Below, in pieces: positions 9,001 to 47,267 of a stretch of DNA of 64,000 nucleotides (positions within the stretch are counted from its first letter, which is position 1; the number at the start of each line of letters is the position of its first letter). The stretch comes from an uncultured archaeon (GTDB lineage: Archaea > Aenigmatarchaeota > Aenigmatarchaeia > QMZP01 > JAFGSV01). The stretch lies in the NCBI GenBank assembly GCA_964559215.1, contig CAZLFZ010000003.1:18779-82778 (forward strand). The letters are read 5' to 3'. Below the pieces are notes generated by a model. It made no database searches. It worked only from the letters and a program-made list of their open reading frames with translations, and was not told the origin of the DNA. The position numbers were made by a program, and so were the translations under genes.

Positions 9001-12000
9001 AAATAACCGATAGTTTCATAAGTATGGGAGCCGCTATCATTTGCTTCCTCAACCCTTATCTCCATGCTTGAAGATGTGGGGTTGTTTTGCCTGGTGTGGG
9101 CTCCTGCTTCAGCAGTCCCTGAATCACCCCCCTCGTTGTAGGATTGTATATCCGATATAACAGCTGGCGTGGAGCCGAAATCAAATCCAAAGTTTACCGT
9201 TTTATAGTTACTGTCTATTGAATCGGTTCCAACATCAGCCCTTAAATTTCCTATTATCCAACTCCCATTTTTTAAGGCAACCCACCCAAAGATCTCTGTT
9301 CCATGCGGACCATCCAAATTGTGGTATTCTTCCACCCTGACATCAAAACCACCTTTTCTGGTTGCGTTTATCCTTGCAGACATTTTCGCGTTGTCATTAT
9401 AAGTCATGGCATCAGCAAAAACCACAGGCGCTTCGGAATACATATAATTGAAATTAACAGTTTTCCAGTTATGATCGGTATCAATCGTTCCGGCCTCACC
9501 AACGATTTCGTATGTTGAACTGATGTTGCTTTTACTTCCCGCCTGCTTGTAACCATAATACATGTAAATAGTCTGTTTTGCTGAACCCTGCAGTAATGGT
9601 AGTTTGACCCACACCTTCGTATCGGTTGTGTTGCAACCCGATTCCAGCCAGAATGATAACTCGTCATTACTTGAATTTACAAATCTTATGTCGTTACAAG
9701 AGCCGTTCATTTTCCCCTGAGAAATCAAAGACTTTGTGTCGACAGAGATGTTTACCTGATAATTTGTAAGGTTGACTCCGAGATTTTCGGAAATGTTTAT
9801 CGGCATCCTGTAAGGCCAAGATTTGTTCATCCAGCCTGCCCATTCCGTGAGATATACATTTTTATTCGCACTATAAGTTTCTTTTTCTGTGTTTACCAGC
9901 ACAGTTGCGTTCACCCTTATTGAGAAATTTTCTGGATTATCAGAACTTGAGACTGGGAGTGCCGATGTGTCTTCTGCCTGCACAAAATACGAATACTTTC
10001 CCCATTGCCATGTATCGTTGAAATCCAGCTCCCAGATGTCACCCGACTTGTAGCCCATATTAAGAAGGACCGAGGAATTGTTTGGAAAAGTTACATTTGT
10101 TTTGACACTGCCCGAATCCACACCTACATTATCAGTAATATTCGTGGCTATGGTCACGGTTTGTCCATAACCAGTTATATTGGGTGTCGCGTTGAACCAA
10201 TTTATTTGGGGCGGTTCGGCATCAATTTTCGACTGTACCGATATAGTTTTTATATCGGTTGCGTTTAGATTCCCCCGGGTGTCATTTGCGTAAAATCTGT
10301 ATCCAATGATTTTTCCAGCAGAGTACGCTGGAATTTGCAGCGTTTTGTTTGACCATTTTCCTGTACCAGAAAAGCTCTCTGCTGACTTGTTCTCCCAAGA
10401 ATCATCTACCGTAGCATTCCAGGAAAATATCCATGATGAGAGATTGTAATCATCCTCCCAGTAAGCGTAGAATTTAACATAATCGTCAATCGATGGGTTC
10501 GTTTCGTTGGCACCGACATTTGACCAGGCAGGTGCTGCCGGATCATAAACCGTGAGCAATCTCGGGGTCGAATTTGATTCGCCTGCGTTTGATGCATTGC
10601 ACTGAACCCTGAAGTAATAGTTGCCTGTTACCGGAGCGGTTATGTTGAAATAATTCTCTGATGTCGTACTTGCTGTTATATTTCCTACAAAATAATAAGT
10701 AGCGTTCGAATAGATATCCTGTCCGCTTGTGGGCGTGTCGTTCCAAACTTCGGTGCGGTTGTCCTGCAGAATTATATAGACGTCCGTTGCGTTGGTGTCT
10801 CCGTCCACTTCTGAACAGTTTCCCTGAAAAAAGACGCTCTGGTTGAAAGCGATTGAAGGAAGACCGATGAAATCCCCTTCCGCAGTAAGGTTTGTCGGGT
10901 ATTCGATAGTCTCGTTCGAATAGATGAAACCGCTGCTTGAGTTGAAGAAAATCGCGAGCCACGGCTCGGCAATATGGCCCTGCTCAGCATCCCCGTTCTG
11001 ATCCTCTTCTGCGAGGAAATAACACATGTTGCTGCCGGCGTCATAATCCCCTGCTGGATACAGGCCGTTCCCCCCGTCTATCTCTGTGCTTGAACCGAAG
11101 CACGCCCCGTCAGCATAACTGGCAGAAAGGGTGACGTAATAGCTTCCGATATCGTACGGGTCGTTCTGGGAACCCAGGACACTGTCCGACTCCCAGCAGA
11201 GTTCGTATGTGTACGTGTCCGTCCCGTTACCCGTCTCATAAGTGTTGCACGCCTCGCTGTTGTAGTCGTCGTTTATTTCCCATGCAATGTAACCGCCTTC
11301 CTCATCCAGGGTATGCAATGCGCAGGGGTTGTAGCTCCCCTGGCACTCGAGGCCGTTAAGTCCTATCTCGACGCAGGAATTGTCCCATACGTTGGCCTGG
11401 GTGCCGCACTGGTGTATGTACCAGATTATGGTGTCGTCGTCGTCGGCTGTCTGGACCGAGGCCAGGACCGCCGGCCTGTAAGTCCACGAATACTGGAAAC
11501 TCCTTTCGTTCTGTACGTAATTCCAGCCGGAGGGGGTTCCCGCCCCGCTGCCGCAGTAGTCCTTGTCAAGCGTGAAATTCTGAACCTCGACCATCCTGGA
11601 ATTCCCTCCGTCATTGTCCGTTACATTGTGGATGCCCTTCTTCATTGCCATCCAGTACATGCCGACTCCCGTCGAGGGACAGTCATCGTCCTCGGTACCG
11701 GAGTCCCACGACTCCGCCCTGGCATAAAACCCTTCCTTGGTGACGTTCTTTATCCTCGTGGCGCACGGGTTGTCGTCATAGTTATAATCATATTCCACGT
11801 AGTGGACTACAACGGGAATACCATCAAACTCATTTTTGAATTTCACTTCAGTCCATGAACCTTGCTGCAAATCCGTTTCATGACCCCACTCACCAACAAT
11901 CTTCCTTTCTGTTGCCTTGTTGCGTGCATACGCGACATACTCGCCGAACCTGAATTCAAGGGTATGCACCCCAGGCGTCAGGACCTTGCTGATCTCATAG

Positions 12001-17312: not shown

Positions 17313-18317
17313 TCAGATAATTTCCCTTCTTTTCTCGATGTCCGCACTGTAATCTGCCAACATGTTAAGGTTCTTCATCAGAGAAGTTTTCATATCTTCC
17401 TTTGTGCAAAAGAAAATGCCCTTGACATCGCTTTTTCTCAGCTTGTTGATAAGCGAGTGGGCAAATCTTATTACCATCTCCTCGTCCTGATACGCCAGCA
17501 AAGTTGAAATCGAATCGAAGATCAACCCGTCAAACCTTTTGCTTTGCAGGCATTTTTCTACCGACAGCAAAATTTCGGTCATGTCAGATGGACCCGTGAG
17601 TTTTTCATAGTTTTTGCCCTTGGAAACGGTTTCACCCTCAGAAGAAGCATCTATGAAATAGAAACAGTCGGTCTTTATCCCGTTGTTTTTCAGGATTTCT
17701 ATTATCGAAAAATACGGCTTGTTAACCGTAACGAATATGATTCTTGGAATGGCCTTGGTGACAGCCTTTATTATCGACAGGGAATCCACCGGATATAGCG
17801 CGTTTGATATCAAGAAAGTCAGTACCTGGTTTTTTTCGGTTTCCCTTTTAAGGTCTATCGAGTGCCTTCTGACCAAGACCTTGAGATCCCTGTAGGAGCT
17901 TAAACTAACACTCTCTTCTTTGAATTCCTCGTCCATGGCAGTGATGATGTCGGTGGTGGTTATTATGCCAGACAGTTTCCCCTTCTTCATCACAGGCAGT
18001 TTTTTTATGTCATTCGCTTTCATCAGCTTTACGGCCTCTTGCAAGGTCCTGCCTTCGTCAATGGTTATGACGTTTTTAGACATAACCTCCCTTATTTTTA
18101 TATTGTCCGGATTTTTTGCAGACATCACTACCTTGCTGAGTATGTCTCTTTCAGTGATGATGCCAACGACATCAACCCCCTCGACTATCACTATCGAGCC
18201 CATCCAGTATTTGGACATCTTCTCTGCGGCCCGCTTTATCGTATCATCAGGGCCCAGGGTCCTTACATTCTTGTTCATTTCCTGCTTTACAAGGGCAACC
18301 ATAACAAATAATATCAA
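17313..18317 (-). CDS. CBS-pair fused to Walker-less KaiC/RecA-fold (MEDS-like) domain protein
   Basis: Two CBS motifs (..GIITERDIL.., ..GIITTTDII..). The C-terminal 180 aa are paralogous to the small proteins at 26862-27410, 27541-28089 and 34872-35444 (FIDA/FIDC ... (I/L)FDSIS(T/A)LL ...). The probable true start is an internal Met (MNKNVRTLGPDD, about 18278). Confidence 0.75.
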   Translation of the reverse strand: MILFVMVALVKQEMNKNVRTLGPDDTIKRAAEKMSKYWMGSIVIVEGVDVVGIITERDILSKVVMSAKNPDNIKIREVMSKNVITIDEGRTLQEAVKLMKANDIKKLPVMKKGKLSGIITTTDIITAMDEEFKEESVSLSSYRDLKVLVRRHSIDLKRETEKNQVLTFLISNALYPVDSLSIIKAVTKAIPRIIFVTVNKPYFSIIEILKNNGIKTDCFYFIDASSEGETVSKGKNYEKLTGPSDMTEILLSVEKCLQSKRFDGLIFDSISTLLAYQDEEMVIRFAHSLINKLRKSDVKGIFFCTKEDMKTSLMKNLNMLADYSADIEKRREII

Positions 18318-18527: not shown

Positions 18528-19028
18528 CTACTGTCGAATTTTGTACAATTTTCTTTGACACTTCAGTTCTGATACCAAAACCCCCCTTAGTTCTATCTCA
18601 CGCAGATATTCGCTGCACCCAGTCCTCGATAATTTCAGCAATTCGCTCAGTTGGGGGGCACCCAAGCTTCCATGCTGCTGAATTAACATGATTATCATTT
18701 CTTTTACCCTCATTTTTCTGACGCTCGGGCTGGTTTTCCCTTGACTGTTCGACTGGTACAAAAACATCAATTCGTCCATTTTCTCGGCAACTTCCTCGAG
18801 TCTGGTGTTCATCTCGTTAGTTCTGTCTTCAAGGCCGTGCTCCCTCACGTTGCCACTCCTGATGTTGTAGAGAACAATGACACCATCAGCCAGGAACTCC
18901 TCCACTCCTGTTGGACTGTATATCTTCGGGTCCTGGTTGGTCTCTGATATGAGGAACGTGTTGACATTCATCTCCTCGAAGAATCTGAAAAGCCGGTTTA
19001 TGTACAGCCTGTAGGTCTCGCCCTTCAT
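18528..19028 (-). CDS. chimeric ORF: C-terminal about 65 aa of a KaiC-like ATPase fused to the wHTH C-terminal domain of the 55679-56140 family (probable recombination remnant)
   Basis: Residues 1-66 (ETYRLYINRLFRFFEEMNVNTFLISETNQDPKIYSPTGVEEFLADGVIVLYNIRSGNVREHGLE) match the C-terminal third of the KaiC at 41728-42585. Residues 67-166 are about 88% identical to the C-terminal 100 aa of 55679-56140. The ATGA overlap with the KaiC stop at 19025-19028 indicates translational coupling. Confidence 0.6.
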   Translation of the reverse strand: MKGETYRLYINRLFRFFEEMNVNTFLISETNQDPKIYSPTGVEEFLADGVIVLYNIRSGNVREHGLEDRTNEMNTRLEEVAEKMDELMFLYQSNSQGKTSPSVRKMRVKEMIIMLIQQHGSLGAPQLSELLKLSRTGCSEYLREIELRGVLVSELKCQRKLYKIRQ

Positions 19029-19780
19029 GTCTTACGCATCGTTGCTATAGTCGGCGTCTTTATCTTAAGCAACTCCAGTCCCTTTTTGGTTATGGCAAAG
19101 GGGTGGATAAATGTTGAATGATCTGTTCTTCTCATCTTACTGATTAGCATAGTTCTGTTGTAGCGCTCTGCAACAGGAACGAACTCGAGGCCGATGACAG
19201 CATCCACAACGAATTCGGTCAATGCCTCCTCACCAAGAATTACCCCTTGTTCTGCTATCCCTTCTGTGAACATGGTCGTTACTCCAAGTTTCTTTAACAA
19301 TTTAGTAAGACTCATCAACGTAACTCTTGACGTGTATCGGTTCTGTATAAACATTTGCAGAATCGACACAGAATCGATAACCACCCGCTGCGCTTTCATC
19401 GATTTAACATCTTCAGCTATTTTATTGGTGAATTCAGATATGTACGCTTTTATGAGGCGGTCAGTCTTTTCCTCTTTGCCAGCAGCTAGGGGCATTACTG
19501 ATACGAACTTCAACAGCCCCTTTTTCTCCAAGGATTTCAGGTCCCAGCCAAACATCTTTTTAATATCCATCCGAATGTCATCCTCTTCTTGCTCGGTGGT
19601 GACATACAATCCCGGTTCTTTATTCAAAGCACCAGCATACAAGAAGGAAGAGCAGAAAGCGGTCTTCCCCGTCCCTGCTTTGCCCCTAATCAAAACAACA
19701 CTGTTATTTACAAATCCGCCTTCTATCTTTTCGTCGAAACCGATTACCCCGCTCTTCAGTCTTTCCTCACCCTCAGCCAT
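19025..19780 (-). CDS. single-domain KaiC-like RecA-superfamily ATPase
   Basis: Walker A GKAGTGKTAF, Walker B-like VVIDSVS, and an overall KaiC/RadA (COG0467) pattern; 251 aa. Confidence 0.9.
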   Translation of the reverse strand: MAEGEERLKSGVIGFDEKIEGGFVNNSVVLIRGKAGTGKTAFCSSFLYAGALNKEPGLYVTTEQEEDDIRMDIKKMFGWDLKSLEKKGLLKFVSVMPLAAGKEEKTDRLIKAYISEFTNKIAEDVKSMKAQRVVIDSVSILQMFIQNRYTSRVTLMSLTKLLKKLGVTTMFTEGIAEQGVILGEEALTEFVVDAVIGLEFVPVAERYNRTMLISKMRRTDHSTFIHPFAITKKGLELLKIKTPTIATMRKT

Positions 19781-19812: not shown

Positions 19813-20540
19813 TTATTTCTTACCCTTGTTTTTCCCCACATCTTTCGCTTTTTTCTTTTTCTCTTTCCGCTGCTTGCCATAGTCCTTTTGCACGCGCTTT
19901 GTGTCCTCAGCGGTTTCCAGCAGTTTAGCCATACTCTTTTCTGCCTGTTCTTCTTTCTCAGCTTCTTCCTTGATGTGTTTCTCAATCGCCCTTACATCCT
20001 CCAGCTCCTCGAGCAATTCCAATCCCTTTTTTTGTTCTTCAGCATCTTTTTTGGTAAGCTTTGGGAGCTTTTTCAACTCCCCCTTTTTCTTCTCGTAGTC
20101 CTTTTGCACGCGTTTTATGTCCTCTAACTTTTCCATTAGTTCGTTTTCCCTCTTCCATATTTTTTCCTGCTTCTCGGCCTTCTGTTCGGACTCTTTTTCC
20201 AGGGCCTTGGTATTCTCCAGCTCCTCGAGCAGCTTCAGCTCTTTGTCCCTCTTCTCGATTTCTGATTTCTTCAGTTTCTTTACCTTTATCCTTGTTCCGG
20301 TCTTTTTCAACCATTTATCGTATTGTTTCTGTACCCCCTTCATATCCTCAGCTTTTTCGAGCACAGCAAACCATCTTTTCTCTTTCCTTCTCTTAACTTT
20401 CCTGTCAGTTTCTTTCTGAACGGCTTTTACATCTTCAAGCTCTTCAAGCATCTGCTCTGTTGCTATTTGCTTTGCCTTCTCCTTCTTTCTCGGCTCCCTT
20501 GTTTTTTTCGGCAAGCCGGAGGGGAGTCTCGCCCCTGACA
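19813..20540. repeat. tandem coding repeats of about 215-220 bp (6 copies of the LEELEDxKxVQKDY motif) in the cytoplasmic tail
   Basis: Recurring DNA strings ctccagctcctcgagca (about 19995, 20215), gtccttttgcacgcg (about 19883, 20098) and tcttcaagctcttcaagca (about 20437). These generate the low-complexity artefact ORFs seen on the plus strand. Confidence 0.6.
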
Positions 20541-23500
20541 GTTTCCAGGCCCACAATATCCAGAAAATGAATGCAAGTGCTATGAGTATGAACTGCCACA
20601 GTTCGTCAGGGATGTGTGTCACTATTTCCCATGTGTAGGTTTTCTCGATCCAGACGATACCGGCGATCATTGCCAGATTGCTGAGATGCATGAGCGGCAG
20701 GCCAATGACCAATCCCAGCGCCCTCTTTCTGCCCGTGACACCCACCGTAGCTAATACAAGCGCTGCGTAGATGAGTAGGGACTCCAATCCCGTCACCTGC
20801 ACAGCTCTGGTGACGGCATCAGCAAGTGGGATGAAACCCAGCACATTCGTGATGAAAAGTACTTCTTCCCTGACGACTGCCTGCACAATGCTCATGTCGG
20901 GACGCAGCCAGCGTATAAGATACACCGGGATGCAGAACACGAGAAGCCGGAGCGCAAAGTACAAGAGGTATACCCCCTTCCGCTGCATCGCACTCGATTT
21001 CGTTGAGGCGATGGCCCACCTGAGCGAACGTAAAATCAGTACGGGGAACTTAAAGAGCTGCGAAAGAATGTACCGGGGCCGCACGATTTCGTGTAGCTTC
21101 TTTCCATTTTCCTCTATTAGACTGCTTATCTCAAGCAGCCTGTCATGCTCTTTGGTGATTATCTTCAGGTACGTGGCTTTATCGATTTGCCTGGTGAAAT
21201 ACTGAGCCTCTGTTGATTCTTCTGTTTTGGCAGTTATTTTTGCCTCTTCTCCCAACTTCCTGGTCTCTTTTTTCAGCCTGTAGAGGGGGATGAAGAGCTG
21301 GGTTGTAAAGAAGCTTGCGAAGAAGATGGCAAGTGCTATTCCTGTGATGTACCATTTGTTCTCAAACAGGAACTTTTGAATCCCCACCCTGGCTAATCCA
21401 AGTCCAATTTCATTAATCCCCATTTCTATCCTGGAAATTGAAATCCTTAATTCTTCCAGATCGTCCATTTTTATAGCATCCATTGACTCCGAAATCGTTT
21501 TTTCGATGTTCTTTACCTTTCCATGCAAGGCGCCAACATCAACGCCTGCCTTGGCATACTCATTGACCCTTAAAACCAAGTCTGGTACCTGTTTTTCCAG
21601 CCCATTTAAAGAAGTAATCAAGGGGTTTTCAAGCACAACGATATTTACACTTTTACTTTTCTCCAAATCAGCAGTGCCTATTCTAACAGTTAGCAAATAC
21701 TCTCTCAACTCTGTGTTAAGGGGCACGTGGATAATTACCGAAAAATCTATTTCGCCCTTAACGGGCAAATAAAATTCTTTGTCTATGAAGACAGCACAAC
21801 ACTCCTTTGTTATGTTAGAGCTCAGGTTGAGATCAAGGTTTCCCATGTTAGCAATGGAGCCGATAACCGTCCCGTTCTCACCCCCAACTATTTCAATAAC
21901 CCTGGTGTCAACTGTCACGTTAAAATTCTCAGTCCAAATTATGCATGCCGGGTCTCTGGCACAGTCTGTGTCACCGCAATCCACAAATCCGTCACAATCG
22001 TTGTCAAGCCCATCAGAGCAATTCTTTGGAGTTGGGACACATGTAACATTGCTTATGTTGCCGACAATGCTGGGTCCTCTTCCCCTACTTGGCGGGGGCT
22101 CTGCGGCTTCCTCGGCTTTCGTTTTAAGTGATAAAGAGCCAGGTCCTGTGTTGTTATACTCGTCTGTTGCATTAGCCGTCAAGTAAAATTCGATTCCTGG
22201 TGTTGAGGATGACCTGCAGTCAGCGGAAATGTTGTAATACAAATCACCGGTTCTTTCCAGTGAAAAATTGCCGTTGGGGCAAAACAGGGCCACGTTCACG
22301 GTGTAACCCAATAGTTCATTTCTTGAGTTATACACCTCTATCTGGGGTATGGGGGATATCCCGGAATTGGCAGAATACTCGGTCCCGGCAGGGGGCTGGG
22401 TGAATACGGGAAGCAGGCTGGAGCTTACGTTGAAATACCATGTACCGTTTCCCCTATTCTCCTGTTTTGACACATTTGCAAACATGGTGCAGTTTCCAGC
22501 TGGGTCGCTTTCATTTATCTGATAAGTATAGGTTGTGTTGGTTTCGTTGAATATCATTGCTTCGCTCTGGTTATATCTCGTCAGATTAACGGTCCAATTA
22601 ACCGAACTTACCAAATTGTCATTAACATCATAAACCTTGAGTGTCAGGGTTTCCCCTCTGCTATAAACAGATTCGTTCGTGGTCAGATTTAACGTGTACG
22701 AATCACTGACGTAGAAGGTGAGATTTTCCGGACAGCCCACATCCTCCCCGCTCTTTTTTTCATTATTGCCAATATCTACCGCTGTTATTCTTATCGTACA
22801 ATTCCCTGTTCGGTTTAATTCAAGGTTTTCTACATTATTTCCAGCACCGAATTTAAATTGCCAGATATCACTCGAAATCTTTTCCAAAGTCCCATTAACG
22901 CTGATGTTATCAGGATAGGTGATGTTGGCTCTTACAGATACGAGACTCACGTCATCTGTGGCATTCACAAAAATTGAAAGGGAAGTGAAAAGATTTGTTT
23001 TGTTCACCCCTATCCCACTGTAGTTGAACCAGAAATCGGTCACATTTGGTGGTATGGGGTCTTCCAGTATAACATCTATTGACAGTGAAGAATAGTTAAA
23101 CCCTCCCTCTCTGGTGCTGGAATTCACATAAGTCGTTGTGTTTGTCACGCCAACAGCACTTGCGTTTATGCTCCAATTAACAGAAGAAGAGGAGCCACTC
23201 GGGATAAAAGATATGTTTTTCGTCCAATTTTCACCAGCGCTTATGTTCAAGATAGTCTGATTCTCGATACTAAGGTTTATGGTTAAATTCCTGAGATCGC
23301 CATTGTCCGCGGAAACCAGGGTTTTGTACGTCTTTGTTTCGCCCTTAATTATGACTTCCGGCGCATCTATCGACACCAGGGACTCTCCAAAATTGACCAC
23401 AAAGCTTGCATTATTCCTGACAGAACTATCCTGGGTGTAAACGGTGGCGTTAACGATGTGAGCACCGGACAGTGTTATGTTCGTGTAATTAAACTCATAG

Positions 23501-25857
23501 ACATAGCACATGGAAACTCTTTCCTCTGCTGTAAATAATCTGAACTCATAGATTATCAGGACAGCTGACGAGGAGTGATTTACCCTTATTTGGTTTGTTC
23601 TGAAGGGCGAGAATCCGGAAAATTCAGTCAAATTCTTGTCGTCGGGCGGGTTCACATCGGTGAAAAGAGGCATCCATGCACCGCTTTTTTTGTATAAAAT
23701 AGAAACATTTGCCTGACCGGCGCCATCCTCCCATAAGGCCTCGATTCTATCAAAGGTATAGCTGTCATTCAGCGTTATCTCAAGCCATGATGGGGTTTCA
23801 TCGCCAATCCAGGCAGTGTCAGTATTGTTGTCTATAGACAAGTTGCAGGACCCGACGTTGCAATTACCGCTTGTCCCTAAGTCAAGTAGCGCAACATTTT
23901 GACCTGTTCCTGTCCCAGCTTCTACACATTCGCTTTCATTTAGAATAGCAACCAATGCAGAGCTTGTGAAATCAACCCCAGCTAAATAGGGCTTTTCTAT
24001 GCTGAAGTTCAGCATATTTATGGGTGTCACATTTCCCACCACCTCTGTCCTTAGGGTTGTGTCGCCTGTGATGTTTATTGTGCTTGGAAATACAGTAATG
24101 TCTGGTAAAATAACTTCGTGTGAAATAGAATCCTCAGCACCAGTGCCATTGGCAGGGGTTGCATGCAAAGAGACACGTGTAAATCCTTCCTGTTTTGACT
24201 CTGCTTCCCATTTCACCGTTATTGTTGTCCCGTTTGTAATATTATACAGCTCCGGTTTGGACCACGTTCCCCCGGGGGTGAGGTTCAGAACACTTCGGTC
24301 CGTGATATTTAAAGTCAAATTCACCTGCATCAAATCCCCGTTTATAGCGGTAACGTTTACAGTGATGTTGCACGTTTGATTAGCAAGAATTCTGAAATTT
24401 GGAAAGATGAACTGGAGCTCAGTTGAGCCAAAACCCACCTCAAAGGAAAGATTGGTATAATCTTCAAAGTTTATATTCCCCAGGGTATCGTTTGCCCAGA
24501 CTTGCATTACATTATATGTTCCTAGCTGAGAAGTATCGTTCCACTCATAGATCCAGAAATCAGTGCCACTAGAATTAGAAAGAGTTACATTAACCTCTGT
24601 CCCATTTGGATACATAAAAGTCGCATTAACCGCGCTAACACCACTCGTGTCGTTTACTGTTACATTGAACAACACTCCATGACCAGGCTGGATTTTCGTC
24701 TCGTTCAACTGCGGGTTTGAAATTGTTGGACCTGTTGTATCATAGCTTAGTGTCTTCCATGCAGTACAATTATAGGTACCAGAGCAGTAGAATTCCATCT
24801 TTACTGGTATACCACCAACCCATTCAAGACACTCCCATTGTTGACAGACCTTCTTTGTTTCATCCCAAAAACTACAGTTCCATCTGTCACAGTAGTAGTC
24901 TGTTTCTGAGAATGCTCCATCGATTGAGCCTAAACACTCCCATTGATCGCAATAATTTCCATTCCAAGCAGAGCAATTCCATCCATTTGAACAATACCTG
25001 TCATACTCCTCTGAACTTTCAGCCCATGCTGTGCAGTTCCAAGCCTCGCAAACATCTCCATTCCAAACTATACAATCCCATACACCAGAACAATAAGAGT
25101 CTGCCTTTTGAGTTGATCCCTGAGCCCATTCGGTGCAATTCCAAATGTCACAATTAGTTCCGTTCCAGTTTGTACAGTTCCAGATGCCAGTAGAATAGTA
25201 ATCAGAGTCGTCATTTTCACTAAGAGACCAAGCTGTACAGTTCCAGTATCCACAATACCCCCCATTCCACTCTAGGCAATCCCAGTCACCAGAACAATAC
25301 ATAAGTCGTCTATCTTTTCCGCTGTTTGTCCACCCCTCGCACTTGTATTCTGCACAAGTAACCCCATTCCAACGTGTGCAGTTCCAGTTGCCTATACAGT
25401 ATTTTGACTGCTTGTCATCATCATATGTCCATGCCGTGCAGTTCCATAATTCACACTTCTCTGTAGTCTGTCCATAATCATTTAACTGGATTGGGGATTC
25501 ATCAAAATTATTGCCATCTGCCGGTCCCTTATCACTTACCCAAAAACCTTCAGACGACATAAAGAATGCGAGTGTCGCTTTTGGAGTAGCTGATACTAAA
25601 GGAATAAAGAAAAAAATGGTAAATAAAGAAATTAAGAAAACACCGAAAAACATACCTCCTTTTTTTCTACGCAGGATGTTTCTAAAAGGTCTCCGCCTGG
25701 GCTTGTGTTTCTTTCTAATTTCTTTCAACTTTTTTGTTGCCCCAGAGAAATCCTGACCAAGATAAACGTTGATGACCCGGCCATCCTTGTCCCTGAAGCT
25801 TTCATAATAATAAGGCCCGTGAATTTTTTTGCCTCTTTTTATATACTTCTTGTACAC
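19813..25857 (-). CDS. giant cell-surface glycoprotein (2014 aa): cytoplasmic N-terminal motif, signal-anchor, Cys/Trp repeat array, sequon-rich Ig/CARDB-like region, multi-TM segment and Lys/Glu-rich cytoplasmic repeat tail
   Basis: Complete ORF in the track. N-terminus MYKKYIKRGKKIHGPYYYESFRDKDG followed by TM FFGVFLISLFTIFFFIPLV. About 7 copies of WNCTAW..YCSG.W(N/D)C..WNG..C. More than 100 NxS/T sequons. About 7 predicted TM helices near the C-terminus, then LEELEDVKAVQK(D/E)Y repeats. Confidence 0.85.
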   Translation of the reverse strand: MYKKYIKRGKKIHGPYYYESFRDKDGRVINVYLGQDFSGATKKLKEIRKKHKPRRRPFRNILRRKKGGMFFGVFLISLFTIFFFIPLVSATPKATLAFFMSSEGFWVSDKGPADGNNFDESPIQLNDYGQTTEKCELWNCTAWTYDDDKQSKYCIGNWNCTRWNGVTCAEYKCEGWTNSGKDRRLMYCSGDWDCLEWNGGYCGYWNCTAWSLSENDDSDYYSTGIWNCTNWNGTNCDIWNCTEWAQGSTQKADSYCSGVWDCIVWNGDVCEAWNCTAWAESSEEYDRYCSNGWNCSAWNGNYCDQWECLGSIDGAFSETDYYCDRWNCSFWDETKKVCQQWECLEWVGGIPVKMEFYCSGTYNCTAWKTLSYDTTGPTISNPQLNETKIQPGHGVLFNVTVNDTSGVSAVNATFMYPNGTEVNVTLSNSSGTDFWIYEWNDTSQLGTYNVMQVWANDTLGNINFEDYTNLSFEVGFGSTELQFIFPNFRILANQTCNITVNVTAINGDLMQVNLTLNITDRSVLNLTPGGTWSKPELYNITNGTTITVKWEAESKQEGFTRVSLHATPANGTGAEDSISHEVILPDITVFPSTINITGDTTLRTEVVGNVTPINMLNFSIEKPYLAGVDFTSSALVAILNESECVEAGTGTGQNVALLDLGTSGNCNVGSCNLSIDNNTDTAWIGDETPSWLEITLNDSYTFDRIEALWEDGAGQANVSILYKKSGAWMPLFTDVNPPDDKNLTEFSGFSPFRTNQIRVNHSSSAVLIIYEFRLFTAEERVSMCYVYEFNYTNITLSGAHIVNATVYTQDSSVRNNASFVVNFGESLVSIDAPEVIIKGETKTYKTLVSADNGDLRNLTINLSIENQTILNISAGENWTKNISFIPSGSSSSVNWSINASAVGVTNTTTYVNSSTREGGFNYSSLSIDVILEDPIPPNVTDFWFNYSGIGVNKTNLFTSLSIFVNATDDVSLVSVRANITYPDNISVNGTLEKISSDIWQFKFGAGNNVENLELNRTGNCTIRITAVDIGNNEKKSGEDVGCPENLTFYVSDSYTLNLTTNESVYSRGETLTLKVYDVNDNLVSSVNWTVNLTRYNQSEAMIFNETNTTYTYQINESDPAGNCTMFANVSKQENRGNGTWYFNVSSSLLPVFTQPPAGTEYSANSGISPIPQIEVYNSRNELLGYTVNVALFCPNGNFSLERTGDLYYNISADCRSSSTPGIEFYLTANATDEYNNTGPGSLSLKTKAEEAAEPPPSRGRGPSIVGNISNVTCVPTPKNCSDGLDNDCDGFVDCGDTDCARDPACIIWTENFNVTVDTRVIEIVGGENGTVIGSIANMGNLDLNLSSNITKECCAVFIDKEFYLPVKGEIDFSVIIHVPLNTELREYLLTVRIGTADLEKSKSVNIVVLENPLITSLNGLEKQVPDLVLRVNEYAKAGVDVGALHGKVKNIEKTISESMDAIKMDDLEELRISISRIEMGINEIGLGLARVGIQKFLFENKWYITGIALAIFFASFFTTQLFIPLYRLKKETRKLGEEAKITAKTEESTEAQYFTRQIDKATYLKIITKEHDRLLEISSLIEENGKKLHEIVRPRYILSQLFKFPVLILRSLRWAIASTKSSAMQRKGVYLLYFALRLLVFCIPVYLIRWLRPDMSIVQAVVREEVLFITNVLGFIPLADAVTRAVQVTGLESLLIYAALVLATVGVTGRKRALGLVIGLPLMHLSNLAMIAGIVWIEKTYTWEIVTHIPDELWQFILIALAFIFWILWAWKLSGARLPSGLPKKTREPRKKEKAKQIATEQMLEELEDVKAVQKETDRKVKRRKEKRWFAVLEKAEDMKGVQKQYDKWLKKTGTRIKVKKLKKSEIEKRDKELKLLEELENTKALEKESEQKAEKQEKIWKRENELMEKLEDIKRVQKDYEKKKGELKKLPKLTKKDAEEQKKGLELLEELEDVRAIEKHIKEEAEKEEQAEKSMAKLLETAEDTKRVQKDYGKQRKEKKKKAKDVGKNKGKK
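24750..25440. repeat. array of about 34-residue Cys/Trp-rich repeats (WNCTAW..(x11)..YCSGxW(N/D)CxxWNGxxC) within the giant protein
   Basis: Visible in the translation: WNCTAWTYDDD.., WNCTRWNGVTC, WDCLEWNGGYCGYWNCTAWSL.., WNCTNWNGTNCDIWNCTEWAQ.., WDCIVWNGDVCEAWNCTAWAE.., WNCSAWNGNYCDQWECLG.., WNCSFWDE... Each unit carries an N-C-T sequon. Confidence 0.65.
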
Positions 25858-26083: not shown

Positions 26084-26854
26084 CTATTGTTTGTCAAAAA
26101 GGCTCTGCGCCTGGACATCTATCCCTTTGTTGGTAATCGTGAAATTGTAATACCCTTCGGTGAACGCAGAGCCACGTATCTTTTGTATGCTCAATCCCCT
26201 ATATGCTTTCCCCTCGCTATGCACATAGTCTAATTGTATGACCCCGTCAGCAATGAATTTCAACTGTTGCCAGTAGCCTGTTTCCGCCTCAACGGTAACC
26301 AGGGCGGTGACACCCAATTTTGCTATGTGTTTAAAGAAGGTCATGGCTCCCATCCTCGCCAGCGACTCAGAATCTGCCATCAAACTGATCGCGGTCAGGG
26401 GGTCTATGACCAAGCGTCGTGCACCAATTTCATTGACCGCCTCCTTGATAAGTTCAATGAGCGTATTGGTCGAAAGAAAATGGACACTTTTTTGGGCTTG
26501 TGACGTTGAACTAGTATATGCCGATAAAGCATTCTCAATATCACTAGAGACCGCCCTTATGTAAGGGATCACGCGGACCAAGTTTTCCCTTTCCAGTTTC
26601 TCTAGATCCCAGCCAAAGGATTTGATATTGCTTAACATCTTTGGCTTATCTTCTTCCAGATTGACGAGGACGCCCGGCTCCTTGAACTTGGCTGCACCAT
26701 TATAGATGAACTCCAACCCAAATATAGTCTTCCCTGTTCCGCAACCGCCAGTAATCACATAGATTTTCTTTTCTGGCAACCCTCCGTTTAAGAGTTCATC
26801 TAACCCTGCTATCCCGGTTTTGACCCGTTTCGGACCTGGTCTTTTTTCGCCCAT
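26084..26854 (-). CDS. single-domain KaiC-like ATPase
   Basis: GIAGLDELLNGGLP, Walker A GGCGTGKTIF, ..LVIDPLTA..; 256 aa. Confidence 0.9.
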   Translation of the reverse strand: MGEKRPGPKRVKTGIAGLDELLNGGLPEKKIYVITGGCGTGKTIFGLEFIYNGAAKFKEPGVLVNLEEDKPKMLSNIKSFGWDLEKLERENLVRVIPYIRAVSSDIENALSAYTSSTSQAQKSVHFLSTNTLIELIKEAVNEIGARRLVIDPLTAISLMADSESLARMGAMTFFKHIAKLGVTALVTVEAETGYWQQLKFIADGVIQLDYVHSEGKAYRGLSIQKIRGSAFTEGYYNFTITNKGIDVQAQSLFDKQ

Positions 26855-26861
26855 TTTCCCT

Positions 26862-27410
26862 TCACCTACCCTTTTCCTTACCCGTAAATATAATTTTATC
26901 AGAAAACATGCCCAAGTTTTTTATGAAATCTTCGTGCGCATCTTCTTCGAGACAGATAAAAATGCACCCCTTCTCAGATATTCTAAGCTTCGATACCAGC
27001 AAGTGCGTGAACTTGATGGCACTTGCCTGACTCCCATAGACCAAAAGGGTGGACAAGGAATCAAACAAGATGCAATCCACGTGCATGAGCAATGCCTTGG
27101 TAACCGTTATGCTCAATTCGGTGAGCGCATCAGGAGAAGATACAAATAACACCTGCCCTTCTTTCTGTTTTTCATCTACCCCCTTTACACAATCTATAAA
27201 AAGTATCTTCTTCGTATCGATTCCTCCCCCTTTAAATTCCTTTGTCAAGGTCGTGTACGGCTTGTTAAGAGACAAGTAACATATCATATTATGAATCTTT
27301 GTAGCAGCGCCAACAATCTCCTCTAGGGCGGTTCTATAGTTTTTGCTGGGAACAACAAAAACAACGACTTGATTTTCCTTCATCTCCATCTCTAGGTTTA
27401 TTTTCAGCAT
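26862..27410 (-). CDS. Walker-A-less KaiC/RecA-fold small protein (MEDS-like), 182 aa; operon partner of the KaiC at 26084-26854 (7-nt gap)
   Basis: Aligns along the KaiC core, but the P-loop is replaced (VVVFVVPSKNYRTALEEI). Conserved FIDCV ... ILFDSLSTLLVY ... FICLEED shared with three paralogs in the window. Confidence 0.75.
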   Translation of the reverse strand: MLKINLEMEMKENQVVVFVVPSKNYRTALEEIVGAATKIHNMICYLSLNKPYTTLTKEFKGGGIDTKKILFIDCVKGVDEKQKEGQVLFVSSPDALTELSITVTKALLMHVDCILFDSLSTLLVYGSQASAIKFTHLLVSKLRISEKGCIFICLEEDAHEDFIKNLGMFSDKIIFTGKEKGR

Positions 27411-42998: not shown

Positions 42999-45900
42999 TT
43001 ACTTTGGGGATCGGTTTGGCTTTATGCGTTTTAGTTGAGGTTTTTTAACTTTAGCCTTGCGTGGTTCACGCCTTTCCTTTTTCACTTTTTCAGGGACTGG
43101 TTTTTCAGCCCGGGGCAACCTGTATTCGCGGTGTTCTTTCTTGAGTATCTTGACTTTTTCAGCTTCCAGCCTCTCCATCGTCCTGCCAAGTTCTTTTTTG
43201 TATTTTTTCATCCGGGTTTCATAGTCTTTTTTGCCCAAGCTTTTCTTGTTGAAATAACCTTCCTGCAAGGTCTTCATCGAGTTTTTTATGTTGTCGACCT
43301 CATTCTCCAAGCTTTTCATCATGCGGGCTTTTTTCACTTTTTTCAGCTTTACGAAAGCAGGAACAGACGCTAAAACAAGCAAAACAACGCAGGCAGATAT
43401 AATCAGCCTGTGTGCATAAATCATTTTACCAAATACATCAACGAGATTCTCTCTTGCAGCCATGGAAAGTGCGGCCTCCCTTTCAATAGAGTCCAACCTG
43501 TCCATCGCCTGGGTCAGCAATGTCTCTGCCTTTTCATAATTTTCTTTAGCAAATTCGTCTACTCCATTGCGGAACAAATTCCTAGACTCAGAGACATCGT
43601 GACCCTCGGAAGAAAGCTCATGCATTCTCAGCTCCACATCGTCTATCATTTCGTCAACTACGATTGCTTTCTGTTTTATCACAAAAACGTACCTTGCTGT
43701 GGTCAAAGCAAGGTCGTACTTCCCGCGTAAAAGCAGCACCTTGGCTTCTCCCAGCGTGTGATTGGCATATTCTGTTCCAAAGCCAAGAGCTTTCATTTCG
43801 TCTATAACTGTTTCGGCCTGAGTCATGGCAGCCGTAGCATCCTCTTCCGTCACGTTTTCCAGGGCTTCCAAAACAGAGGGGAAGACCGCCACACAAGCCA
43901 ACAAAACCAAAAACCAAATCACACCCTTAGATCGTTTTGGTTTTTTAAGCTTGCTTAAATCTCTTTCTATTTCTGCAAGCTCCCCCTGCAGCTCTTTGAT
44001 GGTTTCTTTGTACTCGCTCTTGCTTATTTTTCCAAATTCGAAATAGTCACGTTGCAGGTCTTTCATCCTCTTTCCCACCTCATTCTTCTCCCTGTTAAGG
44101 CTTTCTCTCCTGTCTCTGCCTTTCATCATTGCGATTTTTGTGGCGAGTTTTAGCTCGAGTGAGCCTAGTTTGGCAAGCCTTTTTTCGTAATTCCGTTTCC
44201 TCATGTCATAATCAAGCATTGATATTTTTTTCCTGTTGAAATAATCATCCTGCAAGTCATGTATGAGCTTTTTCAGACTCCTTTTATCCCCCCTTATACT
44301 TTCCAGTTTCATTTCCATTGACCTTATTTTCAACCTTCCTCTGAGAAAAATGGATATTATCGCTGCCGATAAGAGCAAAGTAACAATTGCGTACCAGTAT
44401 TTGTAGAGGAACTTGATCAAGGGCAAGATATATTTGGTCTCAAGCTGGTATGCATTTATCGCTGCCTGGATCCTTTCCTCAGCCCTTTCATAGTCGCCCC
44501 TGTCGAAGGCGGATTTCGCCAAGTCCTGCATCTTTTTTGCTCCCTCAACTCTTACACCGTATCTGGCGGCATCTGCTATCATGTTTGCAGACTGTTTAAT
44601 GAGATCAAATACAATAAAGGCCTTTTCCTTGAGTTCGATTATTTCATTTGCTATTTCCTTGGCTTTGTCGAAATTCAAGCCAGAATAAGCCTTTCTAGCA
44701 TCTTGCAGCATTGAGGCCAGGACAGAAACGCTGAAGTTCATGCCTTTCATGTCTTCCAATGCGATTTCGGCACTCTTTATAGAGCTGAAGCTCACGTTTT
44801 CGACTACACCATGAACCGAAAATACAATCTTGCCAGAACTCAGTAAAGAGCTGTTACCGGCAGCGTAATAGCCAATCGCTGAAAGGGAGATGTCCACTAT
44901 ATAGTCCCTTCCTTCGATATAGGTTGGTGCACTGATTTCCAGGTAAAAGGTTTTGGTTTGATTAGGAGCAATGTACTTAATTGTGCTCGGTATTTTTTTA
45001 ATCAGGGTTTCAGGATAACCGCTTATTTCAAGATTGACTTGTGTGAGGTTTGTGTTTTCTACAGTATTCGTTACTTCTATGGTGAAGTTGTAGAAACCGC
45101 CTTTTAGGAGATCAATCCTATCAGGCATCGCGACATCCATTCTCGGTTCTTTTATGATAACCTCACCAATGCCTACGTATTCAGTCACCCCCCTCCCAAC
45201 GCTTGGTCCTTCGCAGTCAATGTCTGTGAAATAGTTGCAACCCGCTCCACAGACACCATCCGAATTCGAGCAACTAACCTGTACGATATCACAGTCAGAG
45301 CTGCTCAGGTTCCCTTTACCACTGGCATTCACGCATACACTTGATATCCCGCTTAAAGCTGATGAACTTACTGCCACAACCAGATCGCTTGTGTTTGTTG
45401 ACTTGGAAGTGATATTACCAATGTACAGGTTCACGTTTCCGCTGGTGTTTGTCCAACCAACTGGAAGCGTCCAGTTAAACCAGACATCTTCAGCAGTTTC
45501 ATTGCCAATGTTTTTAACAGTGGCACTCAAGTTTACACCTGTTGTGCTCTGCGTCACTGAAACAGGACACGTAACAATGTTTAGATGAGGATAAGGCCCG
45601 CCGCTATAGGAATTCATGGTCACGGTGGTATTCAATGCACTTGGTGTCGCGGTTTTTTCAGGGGCAGAGGGCTCAGCGGACATCGTTATTGTCATATTCT
45701 TTACGCTGTCAGAACTTGCATATTCGGCAGTGACGTTGATGCCTATTACGCTTTTCCCATCTATTGCGAATTGTTCCGTTGTGTTATAGTAAACATCTAG
45801 CAAAGGCCGCCAGTCGTCCGTTAGGGTGATTATGAGAGTGTCGTCTCCGGTATTGTTTACGGTTATAATCCCTACGTTGCTTATACTATTCACAAGCCCG

Positions 45901-47267
45901 TATGCATCAATAGAGGAAGGGTTTCTATTCCATGAGTAATCCCAGGTGACATTCACGCTGTCGTTTTGACAGGTGTTGGCGCGTCCTAGGGTGTCATTTG
46001 ACCATATCCTGTAATAATATAGCCTTTCAGAGGATATGGTGGTAAAAGACGCATTCCATAAATTGGTGCCTATTTTGCTCATAGTCAAGTTGATCCAGTC
46101 TACATCGTATTTGTATTGAAATATCGCACCGCTTACATTGCTGGGGTCTGTTATTTCGGCGGTGACATTTATCGTTACACTGGGGTCAATATCGGCAGCG
46201 GAACTTGGGGACATGTTGATGTAATTTACAACAGGACCGGAGAAGACATCTACACTGAAGGTATAGTTGTCGATGTACCATGATTTCTGGGACTCGTTGT
46301 CATAAACCAAACAATTCCAGGTATAAGTCCCGTCAGGGATGCCGGTCAAAGTCCAGTTTGCAGATTTATTTCTGTAATCACCAAAGGCTTTCATGTAAGA
46401 AGCGTTTATCTCGTCTGGGCTTTTTGGTATGTTGGATATTCTGAGTTCATCAAAAGTGGAATACGCTTGATAGTACTTGTTTGAATCACTTCCAAGATAC
46501 ATGTCATTTCCAAATGGAGCGTAAGAATAGAATCCACCAGAGTATATGACAGAATCATTGGAGCCGTCCAGGAAAAGATCCAGTATTCTCCCGCTGCCGA
46601 CCAAGTTATACACATCCCATATGCCTGCCACATGGTGCCATTCTCCAGGATTCCAGGTGCTTATATCCCTGTACGCGGTTGTTTGAGAAGCGTAGTCATC
46701 GTTATAGTAAAAATACAGTGTTCCATAATCAGCGTATAATTGAATTTCGTCCGTGCCTGTTTTACCCGTTGAGAAAAGCCAAGCCGTATCAGAATAAGGA
46801 TCGAAACCGACCTTTAACCAGAATTCGACAGTGCCCTGAGCGGAGTTTATGTTATTTGAAGTTTGATATTTCAAGGAATCCGATTCATCATTTATCATGA
46901 CCCCTTGCATGAACTTGCCGGTCACGAAGCCGGTGGAATCGTTCACACCCACCTCCCCGTCCTCACATGTATAGTCGCCATTAAAATGGCAAAGAAGCAT
47001 GGTGTCTGAATCGGGATCAAACTCCATTGTCCGCTTTGTGCCATGGAAATCAAAGGTGCCGTTTATATCATGGTAAAAAGAGAAACTGAGCACATTTTCG
47101 TCATCCGTTCCGTTGCAAATAAAGGTTAGGTTATTTGTAGAGGTAGAAACATTCCCATCAACCGGTGAAACCAGGGTAACATTGGGATAATTGGAAGCTG
47201 CAACGCTAGGTAAAAATGGGAATAGAAGTAGTATTAGAACTAAGATGGAGAGATATCCGTTAGCCAT
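42999..47267 (-). CDS. giant cell-surface glycoprotein (1422 aa): signal peptide, LamG/ConA-like domain, Ig/CARDB-like domains, then 3 TM helices alternating with helical ecto-domains and cytoplasmic (L/M)xxLQxDYF coiled-coil repeats
   Basis: Signal MANGYLSILVLILLLFPFLPSVAAS; LamG-like ..GTVEFWLKVGFDP..AWLFSTG..LDLFLDGSND..; many NxS/T; C-terminal motifs LQDDYFNRKKIS, LQRDYFEFGKIS, LQEGYFNKKSLG and a basic tail. Confidence 0.85.
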   Translation of the reverse strand: MANGYLSILVLILLLFPFLPSVAASNYPNVTLVSPVDGNVSTSTNNLTFICNGTDDENVLSFSFYHDINGTFDFHGTKRTMEFDPDSDTMLLCHFNGDYTCEDGEVGVNDSTGFVTGKFMQGVMINDESDSLKYQTSNNINSAQGTVEFWLKVGFDPYSDTAWLFSTGKTGTDEIQLYADYGTLYFYYNDDYASQTTAYRDISTWNPGEWHHVAGIWDVYNLVGSGRILDLFLDGSNDSVIYSGGFYSYAPFGNDMYLGSDSNKYYQAYSTFDELRISNIPKSPDEINASYMKAFGDYRNKSANWTLTGIPDGTYTWNCLVYDNESQKSWYIDNYTFSVDVFSGPVVNYINMSPSSAADIDPSVTINVTAEITDPSNVSGAIFQYKYDVDWINLTMSKIGTNLWNASFTTISSERLYYYRIWSNDTLGRANTCQNDSVNVTWDYSWNRNPSSIDAYGLVNSISNVGIITVNNTGDDTLIITLTDDWRPLLDVYYNTTEQFAIDGKSVIGINVTAEYASSDSVKNMTITMSAEPSAPEKTATPSALNTTVTMNSYSGGPYPHLNIVTCPVSVTQSTTGVNLSATVKNIGNETAEDVWFNWTLPVGWTNTSGNVNLYIGNITSKSTNTSDLVVAVSSSALSGISSVCVNASGKGNLSSSDCDIVQVSCSNSDGVCGAGCNYFTDIDCEGPSVGRGVTEYVGIGEVIIKEPRMDVAMPDRIDLLKGGFYNFTIEVTNTVENTNLTQVNLEISGYPETLIKKIPSTIKYIAPNQTKTFYLEISAPTYIEGRDYIVDISLSAIGYYAAGNSSLLSSGKIVFSVHGVVENVSFSSIKSAEIALEDMKGMNFSVSVLASMLQDARKAYSGLNFDKAKEIANEIIELKEKAFIVFDLIKQSANMIADAARYGVRVEGAKKMQDLAKSAFDRGDYERAEERIQAAINAYQLETKYILPLIKFLYKYWYAIVTLLLSAAIISIFLRGRLKIRSMEMKLESIRGDKRSLKKLIHDLQDDYFNRKKISMLDYDMRKRNYEKRLAKLGSLELKLATKIAMMKGRDRRESLNREKNEVGKRMKDLQRDYFEFGKISKSEYKETIKELQGELAEIERDLSKLKKPKRSKGVIWFLVLLACVAVFPSVLEALENVTEEDATAAMTQAETVIDEMKALGFGTEYANHTLGEAKVLLLRGKYDLALTTARYVFVIKQKAIVVDEMIDDVELRMHELSSEGHDVSESRNLFRNGVDEFAKENYEKAETLLTQAMDRLDSIEREAALSMAARENLVDVFGKMIYAHRLIISACVVLLVLASVPAFVKLKKVKKARMMKSLENEVDNIKNSMKTLQEGYFNKKSLGKKDYETRMKKYKKELGRTMERLEAEKVKILKKEHREYRLPRAEKPVPEKVKKERREPRKAKVKKPQLKRIKPNRSPK

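Follow-up and report, generated by a model that had tools for sequence, protein, structure and literature searches.

We analysed a stretch of 64,000 nucleotides (nt) of contig CAZLFZ010000003.1 (hereafter, the window) from an uncultured archaeon of the Aenigmatarchaeota. The window encodes a giant surface glycoprotein, named here p1, and, downstream of it, a single-domain ATPase of the KaiC family. In our reading, which we consider rather probable, the central element of this arrangement is a cytoplasmic hairpin found in p1 and in other giant surface proteins: the hairpin tip would dock the co-encoded KaiC-like ATPase and hold it at the membrane, while the Lys/Glu-rich tail that ends p1 would be secondary. 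An earlier note on this DNA had focused on the tail and had speculated that it might provide coupling to KaiC. Gene order does speak for such coupling, but for the juxtamembrane hairpin that carries a QYF motif (residues 1527-1626) and not for the Lys/Glu tail.

The open reading frame (ORF) of p1 (19813..25857, minus strand (-)) encodes a protein of 2014 residues made, from N to C terminus, of a basic cytoplasmic segment, a transmembrane (TM) anchor, an ectodomain of ~1400 residues, a stalk, a TM helix, the cytoplasmic hairpin, an archaeosortase-like domain and the Lys/Glu tail. Hydropathy places TM segments at residues 66-93, 1504-1526, 1627-1651, 1685-1709, 1713-1735 and 1749-1776. A Pfam scan detected an F5/8 type C domain, and exact copies of p1 are present on other contigs. 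The conserved C-terminal module starts with an extracellular helical stalk (21349..21660 (-); residues 1400-1503), which leads into a TM helix (21280..21348 (-); residues 1504-1526) preceded by a conserved ENKW motif. The cytoplasmic helical hairpin follows (20980..21279 (-); residues 1527-1626), with its tip, TEAQYFTRQIDKATY, at nt 21163-21225. The QYF that had been assigned to the vicinity of the first TM helix of a second surface protein, p2, is actually found in this p1 hairpin, at residues 1552-1554 (nt ~21204).

An exhaustive HMMER search of a library of 50%-identity representatives, with residues 1400-1800 of p1 as query, yielded 210 matches with E ≤ 1e-3, of which the best 150 were analysed. 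The matches split into two modules: module A, the stalk-TM-hairpin region (residues ~1400-1600 of p1), and module B (residues ~1620-1790). Module A was found in 134 of the 150, in proteins of up to 6221 residues and nearly always close to the C-terminal end; in most carriers, the protein ends 60-100 residues past the module A motif. The consensus can be written as ENKW-(TM)-PYYRLGKEI...LV.aR.eTEKQYF.RKIDE.TF..IM.eKQ..IL..R. Three of its residues (Pro, Glu and Phe) do not vary, and conservation reaches 90% or more for Tyr, Arg, Ile and Asp. The tip of p1 conforms to the pattern E-x-Q-Y-F-x-R-x-I-D, and p1 matches the derived module profile with E = 5e-60, a value that is not independent as p1 seeded the profile. 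The ectodomains of module A carriers differ widely, and the cytoplasmic hairpin is what they have in common. Carriers include genomes with the label Aenigmatarchaeota or Heimdallarchaeota, along with many metagenome-assembled genomes of unclassified archaea, and neither Pfam nor NCBIfam has a model that covers module A. Judged by sequence, this module is the mark of a large archaeal family of giant surface proteins that has no name yet. The search for the tail motif in other archaeal proteins, proposed in the earlier note, had a divided outcome: the QYF hairpin is widespread, and the Lys/Glu repeats were seen, within the best 150 matches, in p1 and one relative, P0001.

A structural model of residues 1490-1640 of p1, built with AlphaFold2 from 17 homologs, has a mean predicted local distance difference test (pLDDT) score of 88.6. 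In the model, the TM helix continues ~28 residues into the cytoplasm and ends at F1554, exactly at E-x-Q-Y-F; a five-residue turn (TRQID), a return helix (residues 1560-1592) and a third helix (residues 1594-1622) follow. The conserved residues of the family lie at the membrane-distal tip of the modelled hairpin. With 61% identity between p1 and P0001, the hairpin is the best-conserved C-terminal region. A Foldseek search of the PDB with the hairpin retrieved generic helical hairpins alone, none with E ≤ 1e-3.

A few module A proteins have extra domains after the hairpin, and others have long unrelated basic tails. The tails of P0052, P0090 and P0123 end in a region of ~70 residues rich in beta-strand-type sequence (…IKGK.SFI….DETG..Y.FS…), with a small OB-like look; it looks like another variable cytoplasmic output domain placed past the hairpin.

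The gene of the KaiC-family ATPase (19025..19780 (-)) starts 32 nt past the p1 stop codon. Its product matches PF06745 with 200.3 bits, the cutoff being 26.6, and possesses Walker A and B motifs (GKAGTGKT, VVIDS). Its closest solved structures are those of KaiC and PH0186 (E 1e-51 to 1e-72), with ArlH far behind (E 9e-7); no cutoff of a named NCBIfam subfamily was reached. The association between this gene and module A was examined in both directions. In the forward test, one genome per species was scanned with an alignment of eight module A sequences, and 13 archaeal loci were found (three titled Aenigmatarchaeota, one Heimdallarchaeota and the remainder unclassified archaea); the same scan with p1 as single query gave no matches. 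Among the 12 loci with downstream DNA, 11 have as next same-strand ORF a close homolog of the partner gene (E 1e-40 to 1e-80), which overlaps the module gene or starts less than 100 nt away. In the reverse test, metagenomes were scanned with an alignment of the KaiC subfamily of the partner only. Of the 80 loci retrieved, 68 had at least 450 nt of upstream sequence, and a module A gene ending -19 to +113 nt ahead of the KaiC start codon was present in 52 of them (one at 370 nt). De-replication at 90% identity left 33 positive clusters, 13 negative and one mixed. Overlap between the stop codon of the module gene and the start codon of the KaiC gene is frequent, which suggests matched expression. 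Downstream of the KaiC gene, no conserved third gene was detected across loci.

The assignment of the hairpin and tail to the cytoplasm is consistent with all the indicators at hand. The ectodomains of both proteins are acidic (in p1, 82 Lys+Arg versus 175 Asp+Glu), and the loop and the tail of p1 are basic (21/13 and 77/55, respectively); the loop and the tail of p2 are basic as well (39/24 and 42/16). Sequons for N-glycosylation (N-x-S/T) show a parallel distribution: there are 87 in the p1 ectodomain and none in its loop or tail; in p2, the ectodomain accounts for 39 and the second helical ecto-domain for two, and the loop is free of them. A further indication comes from P0006, a family member in which CBS domains are found past the QYF motif (Pfam E = 1e-35); CBS domains are intracellular nucleotide-binding modules. 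Because the Lys/Arg excess (the positive-inside rule), the sequon distribution and the CBS fusion concur, the p1 tail and the QxxYF motifs are predicted to be cytoplasmic. Hence, the cytoplasmic location proposed in the earlier note fits the data, and the alternative outcome, repeats located outside the cell, was not borne out.

The tail itself (19816..20529 (-); residues 1777-2014) is 238 residues long and contains 26% Lys and 19% Glu. Six half-units, starting at residues 1803, 1833, 1876, 1907, 1948 and 1979 and sharing the pattern [LM]E.[LA]E[DN].[KR].[VILM][QE]K, occupy the last ~215 residues of p1 and form three repeat units of 72-75 residues (19864..20451 (-)), each made of an A and a B half-unit. 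The tail had been described as six repeats of LE(E/K)LEDxKxVQK(D/Q/E)Y. The number is right if half-units are counted; the Tyr, however, is found only in the three B half-units, which end in [VI]QK[DQ]Y (Tyr 1846, 1921 and 1993), and the A half-units have VQKETD, LEKESE and IEKHIK at that place. The underlying tandem DNA repeats of about 216 bp were recovered by a seed-based repeat search as direct repeats with spacings of 216 and 225 nt and 62-77% identity, and were not called by Tandem Repeats Finder. Local alignment scores between units ranged from 102 to 165, compared with 39-56 ± 7 in composition-preserving shuffles; because none of 2000 shuffles reached the observed scores, the repeat is real despite the biased composition of the tail.

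In an AlphaFold2 model, the tail consists of three long helices (residues 1800-1852, 1864-1929 and 1936-2013; pLDDT 70-86), and the first two break 6-8 residues past the Tyr of QK(D/Q)Y. Of the best 150 representatives in the library, P0001 alone shares the tail with p1 (E = 1e-39). Identity is 49% overall, 55-70% in the B half-units and 40% outside the repeat cores; all three B-unit Tyr residues are kept in both proteins, and a 13-residue stretch made of QKQYDKWLKKTG and one flanking residue is almost identical in P0001 despite 50% overall identity. The tail matches no Pfam family, and a profile of the hairpin, when run on p1, matches the hairpin alone and nothing further in the tail. The full-module profile gave an additional match within the tail, which was discarded, as it aligns to the stalk part and was read as coiled-coil composition. 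The tail is a conserved yet narrowly distributed, lineage-specific addition. The helix ends with their conserved QK(D/Q)Y may offer further sites for interaction or may be plain spacer. Four other family members (P0047, P0087, P0092 and P0112) have a second similar motif, EAEKNYYS.IITQ.ELEQI, ~95 residues past the hairpin motif, and a repeated Tyr-containing helix-end motif may therefore have arisen in tails more than once.

The cluster of TM helices that precedes the tail is present as described in the earlier note; these are not generic helices, however, and belong to a membrane domain of the archaeosortase/exosortase family (20530..20979 (-); residues 1627-1776). The match of p1 alone to TIGR04178 is below the cutoff (17.4 bits, E = 0.004; cutoff 23). 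The assignment comes through relatives: module B matches 16 stand-alone proteins of 130-409 residues in phmmer searches (E 1e-13 to 1e-20), and the 10 stand-alone relatives that were scanned all match TIGR04178 with 51-65 bits and pass PF09721. Neither these relatives nor p1 reached the cutoff of a named Art or Xrt subfamily. The domain is modelled by AlphaFold2 with pLDDT 85-94, and a sequence search for exosortase relatives of solved structure was negative. When the motifs are aligned, the stand-alone proteins show DCTGWKS, N..RI and HD..WQ, and p1 shows QVTGLES, NLAMIA and THIPDELWQ. P0001 (1637 residues, 50% identity) is the only library representative with the same fusion; it has DFSGLGS and NLCRIL, along with a precomputed PF09721 match. 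The position of the catalytic Cys is occupied by Val in p1 and by Phe in P0001; the Arg is replaced in p1 and kept in P0001, and the His aligns in p1 and was not seen by eye in P0001. Because the catalytic Cys has been lost in both proteins, the domain of p1, which lacks the catalytic Cys and Arg, is predicted to be a pseudo-enzyme, whose role is probably binding or scaffolding and not peptide cleavage. A targeted literature search found no description of a fusion between a catalytically dead archaeosortase and a giant surface protein. In locus L097 (10006-11455), one stand-alone archaeosortase, P0114, lies near genes for a low-molecular-weight phosphotyrosine phosphatase (LMWPc) and a prepilin peptidase-like protein; a gene for a 471-residue coiled-coil protein follows it directly, and the locus contains no module gene.

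The second surface protein, p2 (42999..47267 (-); 1422 residues), comprises a signal peptide, a Laminin_G_3/NPCBM_assoc ectodomain, a TM helix, a cytoplasmic loop, a second TM helix, a helical ecto-domain, a third TM helix and a cytoplasmic tail. The TM helices (residues 956-979, 1112-1139 and 1280-1311) and the cytoplasmic Tyr-Phe motifs reported earlier were found: three LQxxYF...[IL][SG]...Y motifs, at residues 1006, 1072 and 1335 (nt ~43173-44261), each in a Lys/Arg-rich segment. Motifs a, LQDDYFNRKKISMLDY, and b, LQRDYFEFGKISKSEY, are in the loop (43962..44261 (-)), and motif c, LQEGYFNKKSLGKKDY, is in the tail (43173..43274 (-)). All three are conserved almost unchanged, Tyr included, in P0160, which is 58% identical to p2, carries the NCBI label Candidatus Aenigmarchaeota archaeon and comes from the same assembly as P0001. 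P0160 is the single relative of p2 detected, by a word-index homology search that missed p2 itself. When p2 was compared with the module A profiles, no match was obtained at E ≤ 10 with filters off. The KaiC neighbours of p2 are convergent or ~1.7 kb off. Altogether, the ORFs, the repeats and the p2 motifs of the earlier note stand, as does their conservation in orthologs (the tail in P0001, the p2 motifs in P0160); a Tyr in every repeat and the placement of QYF do not.

The model that we favour can be outlined. We take the regions of p1 and p2 under study to be the intracellular portions of giant archaeal surface glycoproteins with a C-terminal anchor. In p1, the TM helix would extend inward, turn, and send a second helix back toward the membrane, leaving the conserved tip in a membrane-distal position. 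We infer that this tip is most likely the docking site that retains an oligomer of the KaiC-like ATPase at the membrane. Nucleotide- or phosphorylation-dependent states of the ATPase would then be linked to the giant ectodomain, be it to its state, its clustering or its retention; alternatively, signals would run the opposite way, from the ectodomain to the ATPase. In the lineage of p1, an archaeosortase-like domain, predicted to be dead, and a tail modelled as three long charged helices have been added. A bolder version, which we put forward only as a doubtful possibility, is that of a widespread archaeal two-gene device in which the hairpin physically engages a dedicated KaiC ATPase ring, forming an integrin-like transmembrane link through which the ATPase or phosphorylation state would control adhesion or ectodomain conformation, or which would report surface contact to the KaiC signalling network; the dead archaeosortase and the QKDY tail of the p1 lineage would add docking surfaces.

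Several observations weigh against the docking view. Gene order demonstrates a functional link between the hairpin family and the KaiC-like ATPase; it does not demonstrate docking. What is observed are the repeats, their conservation, the domain identities, the gene order and the topology indicators; docking, the course of signalling (inside-out signalling above all) and a role of the tail are inferred. The link has exceptions: one of the 12 loci of the forward test, L015, has a module gene without KaiC gene, and about a quarter of the KaiC-subfamily loci lack an upstream module and have unrelated genes there. In addition, the gene of P0160 is immediately followed by an Ldh gene and not by a KaiC gene. 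Homology between the p1 and p2 motifs was rejected as unprovable, since BLASTP of the C-termini gave E values of 0.11-0.84 and a profile of six p2-type motifs reached a best E of 0.12; the resemblance of the two proteins lies in a short stretch where Q-x-x-Y-F closes a helix and is followed by a basic turn and by [IL]-[DS]-x-x-x-[FY], and common ancestry of their motifs is possible. The topology was deduced from hydropathy, charge, sequons and one domain fusion. Lastly, the spread of the Lys/Glu tail is narrow: of the best 150 representatives, a single one shares it with p1.

Other explanations deserve consideration. Co-transcription of the KaiC-like gene with the giant gene might serve another purpose, such as assistance in export or membrane insertion, or transcription regulation, and the KaiC-like protein might never contact the hairpin. 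This explanation, which we regard as unlikely, draws on the fact that the support for the pairing is gene order only, on the presence of KaiC-fragment, CBS and DUF7504 genes after the partner gene in the window, and on the view, cited in PMC5847659, of KaiC-like proteins as general signalling hubs. It accommodates less easily that the hairpin is what all the upstream genes have in common while their ectodomains vary widely, that stop/start overlap suggests matched expression, and that no conserved third gene was found as alternative partner. Another explanation concerns the ENKW-TM-basic region, which might be a sorting signal for small archaeosortases: the cytoplasmic part would be cleaved, and the dead domain of p1 would bind or mask the signal in cis. 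A conserved ENKW right before the TM helix, with basic residues after it, is what such a signal might look like, and the fusion of the anchor to an archaeosortase-family domain in p1 and P0001 is a hint of the Rosetta-stone type. However, ~100 well-conserved residues, the best-conserved part of the protein, lie past the TM helix, where known signals end within a few residues; the window, the 13 genomic loci and the 80 metagenomic loci yielded no stand-alone archaeosortase; L097, the single locus in which the surroundings of such an enzyme were inspected, has no module gene; and none of the NCBIfam models for C-terminal sorting domains matches p1 or p2. Because the best-conserved part lies beyond the TM helix and there is no active archaeosortase nearby, we consider this explanation very improbable.

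Two further alternatives concern the tail and the conserved Tyr residues. The tail might be a generic charged helical spacer, either a single alpha-helix of the ER/K type or a loose coiled coil, originated by recent tandem duplication and devoid of a specific partner, with the Tyr as a passenger. The high Lys and Glu content, the modelled helices of 66 and 78 residues (of moderate confidence), the long unrelated low-complexity basic tails that other family members carry past the hairpin, the restriction to p1 and one relative among the representatives and the lack of a Pfam match are all compatible with a spacer; we nonetheless hold it for a possibility of the weaker sort, as the B half-unit cores are better conserved in P0001 than the rest of the tail, the 13-residue stretch is almost unchanged, and the first two modelled helices end just past QK(D/Q)Y. 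As for the Tyr residues, the earlier note had evoked a signalling tail. If they were phospho-acceptors, one could explain the conservation of Tyr in the QYF tip (at least 90%) and its presence in the three B units of both orthologs and in the three p2 motifs. We give this idea hardly any credit: a Pfam scan of window genes identified no Tyr kinase among those scanned, and KaiC-family proteins autophosphorylate on Ser/Thr. Furthermore, the neighbouring invariant Phe and the sequence I-D-x-x-T-F fit a structural role in helix ending or capping at the hairpin turn. Docking of the ATPase at the hairpin tip remains the reading that we prefer.

The operon described here offers a testable pair for two questions: how archaea with giant surface proteins, many of which belong to episymbiotic DPANN lineages, control their attachment, and what most members of the expanded set of archaeal KaiC-like ATPases do. 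It assigns a defined partner to ATPases that were orphans and points to a candidate element for coupling across the membrane, and the fusion of a dead archaeosortase to a giant surface protein is a further lead. Definition of the family would also improve the annotation of large "hypothetical" proteins, which comprise more than 100 representatives of 50%-identity clusters. The tail alone is modestly interesting; what merits further work is the operon that joins hairpin and KaiC, together with the fusion to a dead archaeosortase.

Other genes of the window belong to the surroundings of this system. Upstream of p1, a KaiC-like paralog (26084-26854) and a DUF7504-like gene (26862-27410) span 26084..27410 (-), and the P0001 locus (L098) has the same synteny: DUF7504-like gene, KaiC paralog, giant gene and KaiC partner. 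In total, the window contains at least four genes of the KaiC family or of inactivated, DUF7504-like relatives. Downstream, a gene for a protein of 166 residues (18528-19028 (-)) shares 4 nt with the end of the KaiC partner gene. The first ~60 residues of its product match only the middle of a KaiC domain, and its C-terminal third is winged-helix-like by look; a truncated KaiC fused to a transcription regulator is possible. Two genes downstream of p1, the product of 17313-18317 (-) has a CBS pair fused to a DUF7504/inactivated KaiC-like domain, so that CBS appears twice around the system, here and in the tail of P0006.

The remaining parts of p1 also show distinctive features. The N-terminal basic cytoplasmic segment (25663..25857 (-)) bears the motif KKYIKRGxKxxGPYYYE...YLG, whose sole Pfam hint is a weak match to DUF6788 (E = 0.06). 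In its longer form, KKYIKRGxKxxGPYYYExxR...K..YLG, the motif directly precedes the first TM helix both in p1 and in the giant ORF 3-13736 (-), where it is encoded at 13540-13736 (-); it may be a second cytoplasmic handle on giant proteins. Residues 138-346 of p1 (~24790-25450 (-)) contain eleven Cys-rich W(N/D/E)C..W repeats, mostly WNCT.W, 13-34 residues apart and most of them with an N-glycosylation sequon inside; no family model matched these repeats. Also in the ectodomain, residues 1276-1305 (21940-22030 (-)) show a sub-threshold match to the NF033662 acidic double-disulfide repeat (35.4 bits; cutoff 41) and another, also sub-threshold, to the Cu-binding MopE motif. Further giant open frames leave the window at both ends: 3-13736 (-), with at least 4578 residues and 260 sequons, and 57721-63999 (+), with at least 2093 residues and 69 sequons. 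The C-termini of both fall beyond the window.

Several known systems invite comparison. As a short two-helix cytoplasmic element near the C-terminus, SHOCT (PF09851) is similar to the p1 and p2 elements, and the p2 motif G-K-I-S-x-x-E-Y resembles the SHOCT pattern. SHOCT identity was nevertheless rejected, as neither the p1 hairpin, the family medoid, the p2 loop, the p2 tail nor the p1 tail matched PF09851 at E ≤ 10, and the full p1 and p2 proteins gave no SHOCT match at E ≤ 1 in Pfam. SHOCT is a domain of ~30 residues in which two helices flank a Gly and a Glu that are strongly conserved (PMC3581485). The module A consensus YFxRKIDExTF, in contrast, has no conserved Gly, and Gly is present in one of the three p2 motifs. 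Single alpha-helix tails of the ER/K type and coiled-coil tails are, like the p1 tail, rich in Lys and Glu, with long uninterrupted helices (modelled, in the case of p1); unlike them, the p1 tail has repeated non-charged cores (LEELED..., QKDY) that are conserved in P0001. In turn, residues 1627-1776 of p1 are homologous to small stand-alone archaeosortases and have the same helix layout; the difference is that the latter are independent proteins with the Cys, whereas p1 carries the domain, without this Cys, as a fusion at the C-terminal end of a giant protein.

The closest precedent is found in the crenarchaeal archaellum motor, where the cytosolic domain of ArlX, a single-pass membrane protein, is the part that binds KaiC-like ArlH (PMC8978795). 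As in our proposal, a helical cytosolic domain holds a single-domain KaiC-family protein at the membrane (PMC8978795). There are differences, however: no sequence relation between ArlX and p1 was found, and ArlX lacks a large ectodomain; the partner encoded in the window is much closer to KaiC proper and PH0186 than to ArlH, and no ArlI/ArlJ-type genes are adjacent. We found no description in the literature of a pairing between KaiC and the C-terminal hairpin of a giant surface protein; the survey of Makarova, Galperin and Koonin (2017) was outside the search, and a prior description is possible. That survey, as far as its citation in PMC5847659 conveys, proposed archaeal KaiC-like ATPases as signalling hubs. 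The window is similar to that picture in having members of an expanded family of single-domain KaiC ATPases and inactivated, DUF7504-like relatives encoded beside sensor and membrane proteins.

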